A stretch of DNA of 32,315 nt from a virus (taxonomy: Duplodnaviria > Caudoviricetes). The position numbers and the translations under genes are program-made. The notes beneath the pieces are model-generated. The model saw only the letters and a list, made by a program, of their open reading frames with translations, made no database searches and was not told where the DNA came from. The stretch is from IMG/VR virus record IMGVR_UViG_3300032290_000098, positions 1-32,315 of that record. The stretch is one strand, 5' to 3'. Shown piece by piece: positions 17,394-31,577 of this stretch. Each line of letters opens with the position of its first letter. The first letter of the stretch is position 1.

Positions 17394-17656
17394 CAGCAGT
17401 CTTCTGCATTCTCAAAACCAGCTTGCAGCTTCAGATCAGCGTACAGGCCGTCCATCAAGTTGCCCTGCGGGGTAGCGCAGTAGAAGGCATGTGCCGCCAC
17501 TTCCTGCGCGTTTGCTTGTCGGGCATCTGCATTGGCGCTGACACTGACTTGGTACTGCACCTGATCTTTGTTGCCAAAAATGTTGGTGATACGGGCGTAA
17601 GCCTCCGTAAACGGTACGCCTACGTTACTGTTTTGGATGGAGATTTTCAGAGCCAT
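17393..17656 (-). CDS. Small fibre-associated protein (chaperone or tip partner)
   Basis: 87 aa ending LYADLKLQAGFENAEDC. TAATG-coupled to the fibre gene. Confidence 0.65.
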   Translation of the reverse strand: MALKISIQNSNVGVPFTEAYARITNIFGNKDQVQYQVSVSANADARQANAQEVAAHAFYCATPQGNLMDGLYADLKLQAGFENAEDC

Positions 17657-18795
17657 TAGAAGGTCACCTCAGTAGTGTCAATTTTTGCTACCCAGCGGAT
17701 TGTGGTCGCCGCTGCGCCGGTGACAGTCACAGCAATACCGCCGTTTGTTGTGTCAGCAGTAATTGCCAAAACCCAAGTAGCAGCGGCAACATCTTGGGCA
17801 ATAACAGTTGGCGTAACTGCGGCCACAAGAGCAGTCGACGCAGCGTTAGCGCCGCGCTTAATTACGCCTTCAAACTTCCAGCCTGATGTAGTGCCGCCAC
17901 CAGTTACGTTGGCGATGCAAGTTCCTTGGAATGTGTAGGCACTGTTGTTAGGCAGAATTACTTGATTTGTTGTTCCTGCGGCAGATGAGTTGCTTGCGAG
18001 TCTTGTTGCCGTTGCATCCGTAGTTTCTCGACCAAGTAACAATGTTGCAAGTTGATGTCTACCACCTGATGACGAAATAGGGCCATTACTTGCAGGCGTA
18101 ACAAAATTTCCAATAATAGACCTTGCTGTGCCGCCAGCGCCGCCAATGACAATGCTGTTTGTGCTATCTGCTGTGTTGCTTGAACCACCAACAACAGCAG
18201 AACTTGAACCGCTTGAAGTTCCGTTGCCAATACATACAGCACCACTTCCAGATGCAATAGCGTTCTGCCCTCCCAAACACACTGAATTAGCACCGGATGC
18301 AGTTGCAACTGCTCCACCAGCAATAGCATGGTTCCCGGTAGCATTAGAACTTGAAAAAGCCACTGCTCGGTAGGCGGGTGATGATACGGGCGTTTCAGTT
18401 AGAGAAAGCCATCCAGTTTCGGCATTACCACCAGCCCCCGTTGAAATTGCATTTTTACAATATACAAGCTCTAAATTTTTACCGGGAGTGCCGTAATAAA
18501 TACCCGATGCAGATTGTGCGGCTGTTCCGTCTCTTGCATCACTGGAATAAATGTTTATGCCTTGGGTGTTGCTTCCGTATCTGGCAACAATAAACCTGAT
18601 AACTTTGCCTTCAGGTGGGGATGTTGGCAAGTAAACTCGTATAGTGTTGGTTCCTGCTCCCGTTCTAAAATACTGAATTGGAGCACAATCATCTGTTAGT
18701 GAAATAGTTCTATCGGCAGAAGTAGATGCTTGTGCAGTAAAAAAATCCCACACCTGTATTGCAGGTGTGTTCTCGGATGCAAAGCCCGTAAACAT
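17656..18795 (-). CDS. Fibre / adhesin-like protein with YadA-head-like repeats
   Basis: 379 aa. Central ASGANSVCLGG / ASGSGAVCIG / SSGSSSAVVGG / ADSTNSIVIGG repeats and a C-terminal beta domain. AT-richer in the 5' two-thirds. Confidence 0.7.
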   Translation of the reverse strand: MFTGFASENTPAIQVWDFFTAQASTSADRTISLTDDCAPIQYFRTGAGTNTIRVYLPTSPPEGKVIRFIVARYGSNTQGINIYSSDARDGTAAQSASGIYYGTPGKNLELVYCKNAISTGAGGNAETGWLSLTETPVSSPAYRAVAFSSSNATGNHAIAGGAVATASGANSVCLGGQNAIASGSGAVCIGNGTSSGSSSAVVGGSSNTADSTNSIVIGGAGGTARSIIGNFVTPASNGPISSSGGRHQLATLLLGRETTDATATRLASNSSAAGTTNQVILPNNSAYTFQGTCIANVTGGGTTSGWKFEGVIKRGANAASTALVAAVTPTVIAQDVAAATWVLAITADTTNGGIAVTVTGAAATTIRWVAKIDTTEVTF

Positions 18796-29630: not shown

Positions 29631-29656
29631 AAAACGCCCGGCTGCAACCGGGCGTT
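29631..29656 (-). terminator. Hairpin / weak terminator between polymerase and primase genes
   Basis: Minus strand AACGCCCGG-TTGCAG-CCGGGCGTT-TT. Confidence 0.6.
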
Positions 29657-29663
29657 GTTGTTT

Positions 29664-31577
29664 CTACTTACCGTAGCGCGTCATTGTTTGGACCTCAGCG
29701 GCTAAAGGCAGACCCTCGGCCCATGCGGGCGGGGTGCTCATGATACGCTCAAGGTCGATAGGTTGATCGGTCTCGATCACGATTTCATCATGCACATGCA
29801 GCACCACGTCGTCAAGCTGACGCAGCGCGTGGCGCAAGATGTCATTGGCTGCGGCTTGGGTGATGTTCTCGCAGGCCAGGCCCTTCCAGAGACGGGCGCG
29901 GGGCCACTCTGTTGCGTCGGCTGCGGGCTTCCACGATGCTTTGGCGTAAGTCACGCCGTCGCTTTCCAGCCGAGCGTAGGGGTAGCATAGCACGCGCCCT
30001 GATGGCAGCGCATACCACAGGTGCTGACCGTCGAAGAGGTACGCCACACGCCCTGCGCTGAACTCATGGCCGGGGTTACGCATGGCGCGGGTGTATGCCT
30101 CTTCCAAGTCTTGCCAGAACGGCACGGCCCACGGGTTAGCGCGGCGCCACGCCTCAACGATACGCCTGGCCTGCGCCTCCTCGAAATGCACGCCGTAGGC
30201 CCGGCCCATCGCAGCAAACGCCCCCACACCGCCGGCAAAGCCGAGGGCCAGCTCCTGCACCTTGCCAACTTGGCGCTGCTCGCCGGTGACCTCCTCATAC
30301 GCCACGCTGTAGGTCGCTGCGGCGTTGACTTTGTAGGGGTCGAGCTTGCGCCTGAACACGTCCAGCTTGGCCTCGCCTGTGGGGCTGGACGCAAGCCACG
30401 GGTTGACGCGGCCCTCGATGGCCGACCAGTCGGCGACGACGAAGTGCTTGCCCTTGGCGGGTATCAGTGCGGGCCGGAGCATTCCCCGTAGAACATCTGT
30501 GACTCGTTTTCCGTATGCAGGGACAATGTTGTGCCCTCTAACCATAGACTGTCGTACTGCATCAGGTTCCTTAGCGCACTTGCGAGTGAAGTTATGCACT
30601 TGGAGTCCATAGCTCGATGCACGACCAGTGGCGGCACCCCCAGCGAAGACAAAAGCGCCACGGACTCGGCAATCCTCGTCGTCTGCCAGGTCTGCCATGC
30701 GGCTGAACTTCGCAACTGACGACGCCCATAGGTCGTCGGCGCACTGTATAACCTCGGCAACAGCGGGCGGTATCTCATCGGGGTCTCCCATGGCGAGCAA
30801 GTTCGCTCGCACTGTTTTGTCTATCGAATACTTGTCCTTGACCAGCATCAGCTTCTTGGCCTGCTCACCGACACGCGCCAGCACCCACTCGCGCATCTTG
30901 GGCGAGCGCACTGATGTGATCTCGCCCTCGGTCAGCTCGGCCACGCGCTCCTCGATCTCGACCAGCTCGTCATGAGCGTAGCGCATCGCAGCCTTGGCAA
31001 GCGGCACGTCCACCAGCACGCCACGGTCGTTGATGCGCTCGTTGACGTGGTAGTCCATTAATTCTGACTCAGTGAGGGGCCGCATGGCCTTAGAAACAGC
31101 ACGCATCGCACGGACGTCAGTCTCACAATACTGGATCATCTCAGCCATCAGCGCAGCGTCCTCGCGGAAGGTGCCATCAGCCTGCGGGATCGACAGCAGC
31201 CGGATCAGTTGAGCGCCACGGTGATCCTTCTTCATGCTGACGCTGGCGAAGCGACCGACATCCTCCAGCCCACCAGGCGCGCAGTTGGCCCTAGCTTGCG
31301 TGGCGGTGCAGTAGAACTGCTCTAGCTTGAAATTCTGTTGCAAGACGTACCAAAAGATCAGCCGCTCGAAAGCGGCGTTGTGGGCGTAGATGGGGCCGGT
31401 GTGCCCAGCCACCTCTGGCGGGAACGGCTGGTCGGGCGTCCAAGTGACGACTTCGCCGTCGTCGAAGGCGTAGGACATACACAGCACGTCGGTGCTCATG
31501 TCCTGCGCGTAGTTGTAAACGCCTTTGCTACCGAGGTCCACCCGGCTGCGCGTCTCGAAGTCGATCCAAAGGATCAT
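29664..31577 (-). CDS. polA: Family A DNA polymerase with 3'-5' exonuclease
   Basis: 637 aa. Exo motifs DFETRS, AHNAAFE, YCETDV. Pol motif A ADWSAIE, motif B RQVGKVQELALGF, motif C VHDE. Confidence 0.95.
   Translation of the reverse strand: MILWIDFETRSRVDLGSKGVYNYAQDMSTDVLCMSYAFDDGEVVTWTPDQPFPPEVAGHTGPIYAHNAAFERLIFWYVLQQNFKLEQFYCTATQARANCAPGGLEDVGRFASVSMKKDHRGAQLIRLLSIPQADGTFREDAALMAEMIQYCETDVRAMRAVSKAMRPLTESELMDYHVNERINDRGVLVDVPLAKAAMRYAHDELVEIEERVAELTEGEITSVRSPKMREWVLARVGEQAKKLMLVKDKYSIDKTVRANLLAMGDPDEIPPAVAEVIQCADDLWASSVAKFSRMADLADDEDCRVRGAFVFAGGAATGRASSYGLQVHNFTRKCAKEPDAVRQSMVRGHNIVPAYGKRVTDVLRGMLRPALIPAKGKHFVVADWSAIEGRVNPWLASSPTGEAKLDVFRRKLDPYKVNAAATYSVAYEEVTGEQRQVGKVQELALGFAGGVGAFAAMGRAYGVHFEEAQARRIVEAWRRANPWAVPFWQDLEEAYTRAMRNPGHEFSAGRVAYLFDGQHLWYALPSGRVLCYPYARLESDGVTYAKASWKPAADATEWPRARLWKGLACENITQAAANDILRHALRQLDDVVLHVHDEIVIETDQPIDLERIMSTPPAWAEGLPLAAEVQTMTRYGK
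30464..30778 (-). CDS. Candidate 104-aa gene overprinted in the +1 frame of the polymerase
   Basis: GGGAG SD 6 nt before ATG. Host-gene third positions shift to A/T over the overlap. Protein-like composition. Confidence 0.5.
   Translation of the reverse strand: MRYRPLLPRLYSAPTTYGRRQLRSSAAWQTWQTTRIAESVALLSSLGVPPLVVHRAMDSKCITSLASALRNLMQYDSLWLEGTTLSLHTENESQMFYGECSGPH

Follow-up and report, generated by a model that had tools for sequence, protein, structure and literature searches.

A candidate gene overprinted on the DNA polymerase gene in a group of tailed phages

Does the middle of a phage DNA polymerase gene, where codon usage departs from that of the rest of the gene, also encode a second protein in another frame? 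The question is raised by the window (the whole stretch of DNA analysed here, a virus record of 32,315 bases, estimated to be 87% complete), which carries P22-like coat and portal genes, a terminase, a primase, and a family A DNA polymerase, as judged by Pfam and PHROG matches. The initial annotation had proposed that the polymerase gene, polA, contains a dual-coding region from which a small protein is expressed. The features concerned are the following.

29664..31577, minus strand: family A DNA polymerase gene polA, 637 aa, the host frame (Pfam PF00476, E 2e-13; phrog_17, E 5e-90; PolI match from residue 374)
30464..30778, minus strand: putative overprinted ORF, 104 aa, in the +1 frame of polA codons 267-371 (from an ORF scan and relatives)
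30785..30789, minus strand: Shine-Dalgarno (SD) sequence GGGAG, with a 6-nt spacer to the internal ATG (anti-SD pairing -7.3 kcal/mol)
30464..30466, minus strand: TGA stop of the +1 ORF (polA CTG ATA), the commonest end (47/91 ORFs)
30560..30667, minus strand: core common to all start and stop variants, polA codons 304-339 or product residues 38-73 (latest start 304, earliest common stop 340)
30793..30810, minus strand: small hairpin just upstream of the SD, which may be due to chance (z -2.3 for 30760-30830, one of five windows folded)

The nested frame in the window

polA lies between a replication-type gene and the primase gene and is not disrupted by the overlap, whose end lies shortly before the region of the motif A aspartate (codon 383). 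The overlapped codons specify ordinary conserved PolA residues, and residues invariant in 54 relatives span the overlap. The internal ATG falls on polA codon 267 (GAT GA). The layout agrees with the initial annotation: a 104-codon +1-frame ORF on the same strand as polA (30778-30464), with GGGAG (30789-30785) 6 nt before its ATG. Its count of 49 A/T-ending codons among the 105 polA codons of the overlap was reproduced, versus 114 of the 532 polA codons outside it (Fisher p 3e-7), and the adjacent stretch 29951-30394, for which about 29 of 147 had been claimed, gave 28 of 147 on recounting. The claimed switch to rare codons holds as an excess of A/T-ending codons but not for ACA, which is no marker of the region (once inside, five times outside); each of the remaining codons named as rare (ATA, CTA, CGA, AGA, GGA, GTA) occurs one to three times. 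The shift had been placed about 40 nt upstream of the ATG, and there close relatives show little or no constraint, with 3.47 third-position changes per codon in codons 245-259 versus 3.89 in codons 1-244. The +1 product is protein-like, as had been claimed, its R/P/S/A fraction being 0.35 versus 0.61 downstream and 0.49 upstream in the same frame, and its L/I/V/M/F fraction 0.25 versus 0.09 and 0.15, respectively.

The open frame by itself is within chance. The expected number of stops in the window is no more than 1.5, which makes the ORF weak evidence when taken alone, and it is the relatives that decide. Directly after the ORF, polA codons 372-541 are likewise free of +1 stops, over a stretch longer than the ORF. 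Among 16 window genes scanned, no other same-strand nested ORF with SD and ATG was found, and no sigma-70-like promoter was seen ahead of the nested ORF.

Several other features of the window were observed in passing. An SD motif is seldom found at the start of polA itself (15 of 113 polA starts examined). In the window (31603-31575, minus strand), the polA ATG is without an SD and lies directly 3' of a GC-rich hairpin and T run that resemble an intrinsic terminator; a hairpin ahead of the polA start is common in relatives, with TTTT within 14 nt of the start in only 6 of 113. A nine-pair inverted repeat (29633-29656) separates the polA stop from the primase start and is overlapped by a weak Rfam match (E 0.05, under the threshold of the family). 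The 379-aa gene at 17656-18795, with neither a Pfam nor a PHROG match, has 67% A/T-ending codons, far from the usual bias of the genome, and was possibly acquired. Further local A/T-ending bumps occur in structural and terminase genes (7554-7314, 11847-11637, and 22953-22623), none of which coincides with an open alternative frame on the same strand of the window.

Conservation of the frame and migration of its start

The phage group is abundant, with an estimated 830 or so stored stretches. Its closest annotated genome is MW202483.1, from an uncultured podovirus of a spring, at 62% PolA identity to the window; the remaining GenBank phages are below 60%. A host search gave 12 matches, all to contigs that are short and belong to MAGs from unrelated phyla; no host can therefore be assigned. 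In RNA runs, every share was 0.10 or less and came as contigs only, from which neither habitat nor expression can be read; in these contigs, the longer pieces over the ORF are mostly 3-6% divergent, and most of those from the flanks 10-14%.

Five viral-contig scans, together with MW202483.1, gave 375 loci; 34 of these, either partial or exceeding 720 codons, were left out. Adding the window brought the set to 342 loci, 254 of them unique, and 128 representatives below 90% nucleotide identity, which are related to each other, so that pooled counts overstate independence. Among the closest loci, 74 of 80 have no +1 stop in the part of codons 267-370 that they cover (three span only 11-59 codons). 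In the 128 representatives, the same codons hold 100 +1 stops versus 307 expected from the codon usage of each gene. The other four frames (+2 and three antisense) are not depleted of stops there (observed/expected 1.08-1.63), and outside codons 267-370 the ratio for the +1 frame is 0.74-1.16.

When the representatives are split by start signal only, the 84 genes with both SD and ATG hold a single +1 stop in codons 273-339 versus 82.1 expected. The corresponding numbers are 19 versus 23.7 for the 18 genes with the ATG without an SD motif, and 26 versus 34.6 for the 26 genes with no ATG. The conservation of SD, ATG and open +1 frame in related polA genes, to which the initial annotation had looked for a decision, is thus found. 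In clades defined by the tree, codons 273-370 contain no stops in the window's clade, clade B, or clade C (19.5, 42.5, and 51 expected, respectively). A clade-by-site test is partly circular, its class having been prefiltered on openness, and does not serve as main evidence. A TTGACA element at codons 252-254, present in 42 of the 84 SD+ATG genes and 7 of the 26 no-ATG genes, carries no weight because the window itself has TAGACA.

The start signal is conserved as well. Asp267 is encoded by GAT, the codon that creates the ATG, in 78 of 105 genes versus 39 expected. Pairing with the anti-SD motif averages -6.0 kcal/mol at used starts versus -1.0 at 1611 other +1 ATGs. A start was scored when ATG, GTG or TTG in codons 262-306 had pairing of -4.5 or better and at least 60 open codons, and by this rule, whose start windows and SD thresholds were chosen post hoc, after the data were seen, 100 of the 128 representatives qualify. 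The starts lie at codon 267 in 62, 272 in 18, 299 in 8, 266 in 5, 271 in 4, and 304 in 3. Control windows without overlap with those starts give 0-20 qualifying genes in the +1 frame, and all +2 windows 0-4. In each of the 11 late-start genes, the +1 frame is closed at 294 and/or 297, shortly ahead of the new start, which is itself preceded by a strong SD. Mutual compensation between ATG267 and ATG272 is not significant (p 0.13). The same starts recur in database proteins matched by profile, 53 of 80 beginning at profile position 1, 6, or 33, although these proteins come without genomic context. The distribution of starts indicates that the start signal is under selection and migrating, each new start having its own SD. 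At the other end, the TGA site is no commoner than codon usage predicts (68 observed, 69 expected).

Constraint, a long form, origin and loss

In the window's clade (25 genes), four-fold sites have changed 1.64 times per site over the ORF versus 4.43 and 5.00 in the flanks (ratio 0.35, p 9e-10). Divergence that is silent in polA and changes the ORF product is 0.24 versus 0.48, whereas doubly silent sites are not reduced (0.96 versus 0.65, for only about 1.7 such sites). Exchanges in the product are more conservative than expected (+0.74 versus +0.03 BLOSUM). The amino acid change of polA is also low over the region in this clade. These comparisons establish that, at the level of sequence divergence, the product is constrained in the window's clade. 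The suppression of synonymous variation that had been anticipated is therefore found in that clade but is mild in two others (0.79, 0.74), and in five more it is absent or fails to reach significance (0.83-1.13). The excess of conservative exchanges is absent in two of five clades, and dNN/dNS gave no signal in any clade.

Clade B presents a different form. Its frame is extended to 222-230 aa, with no stop in codons 372-490 versus 49 expected, and it shows no silent-site suppression. The tail has more T-ending codons (0.43 versus 0.21), and a hydropathy peak of at least 1.8 is reached by 16 of 17 clade B tails versus 1 of 31 others matched for A/T. The clade B peaks range from 1.7 to 2.6, and AlphaFold predicts two helices, flanked by basic residues. 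Judging from the matched comparison, this predicted C-terminal hydrophobic hairpin is under selection. The long form is seen in L009:1740-2429, in 16 other clade B representatives, and in proteins P0007, P0016 and P0082, of which P0007 joins a window-like N-terminus to a long tail and hints at a long form outside clade B. A hydrophobic +1 stretch is also present at polA codons 440-492 of L302 (T-ending codons 0.40 versus 0.22), where the main hidden ORF stops at 340; it may be a relic or a segment of its own.

Codon bias goes with the presence of the ORF. GC-rich carriers (n=47) have an A/T-ending fraction of 0.43 in the region versus 0.24 outside, and in GC-rich non-carriers (n=13) the bump is gone, at 0.17 versus 0.21. 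The difference has the same direction in 16 of 20 sister pairs (p 0.012). Codons 304-323, within the core, encode a net charge of about -1.9 in carriers versus about +2.8 in non-carriers, and the carrier stretch is helix-prone. In a tree made from the flanks only, the ORF is absent from the three deepest genes and present in most other clades; non-carriers occur scattered over the tree, including lineages with PolA 70-79% identical to that of the window. We read this as one early origin near the base of the phage group, followed by repeated loss. Gene content, compared in 7 non-carrier and 10 carrier genomes, some of them incomplete, revealed no convincing replacement or partner among 47 families. 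Two families of small ORFs (L485:7568-7729 and L486:11705-11887), with neither Pfam nor PHROG matches, occur only in carriers (6/10 and 4/10, versus 0/7 in non-carriers), probably by chance among the 47.

Possible roles of the product and competing explanations

The dual-coding reading is supported by the conserved start signal and open frame, by the reduced synonymous change in the window's clade, and by the lack of a lower-GC donor described below. We consider it very likely that 30778-30464 is a real overprinted gene that is translated. The gene would be an overprint on the polA frame, the older of the two, and would date from near the base of the phage group. Ribosomes would start internally at the nested ATG on the mRNA of the replication operon, as suggested by the better SD of the internal start compared to that of polA. 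The functional element would be the acidic helical core (residues ~38-73), and the small, predicted helical product would act on a host target during the replication phase. Of the two roles proposed initially, replication and host interaction, the latter is favoured because of the repeated loss and the fast turnover between clades. That the product is a dispensable, host-directed accessory factor has, on such sequence comparisons, about an even chance of being right. Its place would probably be at or near the inner membrane, since many lineages have lost the ORF, turnover is fast, and one clade has a hydrophobic hairpin.

A broader reading, which we hold tentatively and at somewhat short of even chances, is that of a de novo gene on codons of the polymerase catalytic domain, with its whole life history visible and its product representing a new host-takeover family. 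As part of the same tentative reading, that history would comprise birth near the base, re-invention of the SD at four positions, repeated loss with reversion of the codon bias, and, in two different clades, the emergence of a constrained helical protein and of a membrane hairpin, respectively. Carriers and non-carriers would then form a natural series, from gain of a start through compositional drift, purifying selection and domain extension to loss. polA is widely used as a phage marker, and the codons beneath the nested gene, which most members of this abundant group carry, are conserved; such a hidden gene can distort estimates of polA synonymous rates and codon usage.

Homology gives little guidance to function. 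polA matches 1668 phage records, and the ORF product none in the same collection. Neither the short nor the long form has a usable match in Pfam, PHROGs, PDB sequences, GenBank phages or the ESM Atlas, and word-index searches returned only 2 and 3 near-identical family members. The 26 inspected among the 80 profile matches look like the same frame or chimeras, bar two low-complexity or repeat proteins. AlphaFold places helices at residues 23-45, 50-57, and 65-92 of the window product, in models that are weak (mean pLDDT 62 for the short and 51 for the long form; pTM 0.33 and 0.16, respectively). A viral fold search gave no match at E<=0.001. Across the PDB, the best Z scores obtained from the pLDDT-62 model were 5.9 (a sigma factor; rmsd 3.9, 84 aligned) and 5.5 (USP5; rmsd 2.8, 53 aligned). 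The likeness to a UBA/CUE-like three-helix bundle or a sigma domain is within the range of common helical arrangements. A homing endonuclease was rejected: at Pfam E<=0.1 there was no nuclease match save in 1 of 62 members (an RNase III model, E 0.076), and there was no PHROG match.

If the gene is real, its product could instead regulate the phage's own replication machinery by binding PolA, the primase-helicase, or DNA. The position within polA, between a replication-type gene and the primase, the basic N-terminal part of the product, and the sequence constraint in the window's clade are all in keeping with such a role. We nevertheless regard it as unlikely, as the scattered lineages with PolA at 70-79% identity do without the ORF, the four-fold sites of the region are saturated between clades (0.5-0.7), and the 11 late-start lineages can dispense with the basic N-terminus.

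Translation itself might matter rather than its product, with ribosomes at the internal SD protecting or pacing a weakly translated polA mRNA. The rarity of SD motifs at the start of polA would fit, as would the several clades that are open without silent-site suppression and the varying starts and ends. The proposal is improbable, however, since it fails to predict the amino acid constraint in the window's clade, the acidic helix-prone core, or the selected hydrophobic hairpin.

We find it highly improbable that the product is a lysis or membrane-permeabilising protein comparable to the single-gene lysis (sgl) proteins of RNA-phage replicase genes. The architecture is that of the +1 sgl genes embedded in rep (PMC7693330), and the two hydrophobic helices of clade B are flanked by basic residues. 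However, the ORF sits in the replication module, and the window form is without a clear membrane segment (peak 1.44, by hydropathy only). The carrier genome G014 has its own GH108 endolysin and 3TM holin, by which the nested ORF was rejected as the lysis gene of the genome; in the window, 87% complete, neither endolysin nor holin was found. An o-spanin of the Rz1 type has an N-terminal lipoprotein signal with a lipobox Cys and is nested in an i-spanin gene. This candidate was rejected by sequence inspection, the N-terminus here being basic, the first Cys at residue 61, and the host gene polA.

That there is no second gene, the frame lying open by chance in an A/T-rich patch, recombined or recently swept, or in a non-coding element, deserves very little credence. 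The few stops expected in the window alone and the low amino acid change of polA in the window's clade are compatible with it, and the region and flank trees disagree on the sister group of that clade, which makes an old recombination or exchange at the region possible. Against it, a recombined patch from a lower-GC relative, the alternative raised by the initial annotation, has no donor among the 127 other representatives, the nearest gene outside the clade differing at 0.44 of four-fold sites. The patches of different clades are mutually saturated at these sites, yet open; doubly silent sites vary freely, and start and SD move together. The RNA fold over the ORF is ordinary (z 0.39 for 30560-30830; 1 of 80 consensus pairs with two-sided change), and Rfam has nothing over the ORF. 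As a control, the +1 ORF of the portal gene (21035-20559, minus strand, 158 codons), which has a similar A/T bump, was rejected as a hidden gene because stops lie inside it in most of 48 related genes. The failure of this ORF indicates that the method does not pass any such ORF. Elsewhere in the portal gene, at codons ~571-610 (window ~20310-20190), +1 stops are scarce in 49 representatives (4 versus 34 expected).

A programmed +1 frameshift, by which the PolA exonuclease domain would acquire an alternative tail, is the least credible explanation: a CCC codon preceded at 3 nt by an SD-like motif resembles sites of the prfB type, and the database protein P0005 is such a fusion, but the ATG persists although the proline codon at 266 varies (CCC, CCT, CCA) or gives way to another, leaving no conserved slippery codon at the entry, the migrating starts are Met or Val start codons at initiation spacing, and P0005 is a single record, the further fusions P0048 and P0072 being joined at different places, as indel errors would be.

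By analogy, the nested ORF would work as other overprinted viral genes do. Annotation pipelines drop fully nested genes. A literature search, covering few subscription journals, found no description of this polA-nested gene. The closest analogues are the leviviral +1 sgl genes in rep (PMC7693330) and geminivirus C4 in Rep (PMC8160170). Leviviral sgl genes, too, are small, bring their own SD and occupy the +1 frame of a polymerase gene; they turn over quickly and are lost among relatives, and some forms have membrane segments (PMC7693330). The present ORF, in contrast, is carried by tailed phages with dsDNA genomes, at least one of which has lysis genes of its own elsewhere; no sequence similarity of its product to sgl was found, and it covers a conserved part of polA, whereas most sgl genes are described as mapping to less conserved parts of rep (PMC7693330).

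Geminivirus C4/AC4 resembles the ORF in being wholly overprinted on a replication gene (C1/AC1), in varying in length by C-terminal extension, and in diverging while the host frame is under purifying selection (PMC8160170). Unlike the ORF of a tailed phage, C4/AC4 are genes of plant ssDNA viruses. The extensions of C4 are reported there to be neutral and C4 proteins to be disordered (PMC8160170), whereas the extension of the polA ORF shows selection for a hydrophobic hairpin and its core is predicted to be helical. The E and K genes of phiX174 are likewise described as de novo overlapping genes with their own start inside an older gene (PMC8227390), and overlaps in dsDNA viruses as mostly a few bases long (PMC8903798). 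The host genes of E and K are not DNA polymerases, and the polA ORF differs further in the absence of a lipoprotein signal and in its several alternative SD and start sites along one frame. The same differences separate it from Rz1 of λ, which is nested inside Rz.

The ShiLan-type HNH gene is also an out-of-frame ORF in a phage gene of DNA metabolism whose main frame stays open, but such genes are insertions of mobile nucleases (PMC11855218). Nothing is inserted in polA here: the region aligns without insertion in carriers and non-carriers, and with no match to a nuclease family a hidden HNH insertion of this type was rejected. An insertion of another kind occurs farther along polA in two relatives, L034 and L036, which have an in-frame insertion of about 300 aa with intein-like ends (C...HN/C) at codon 444; L374 is also over-long. 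The middle of the L034/L036 insertion is shadow-like, possibly hiding an out-of-frame gene.
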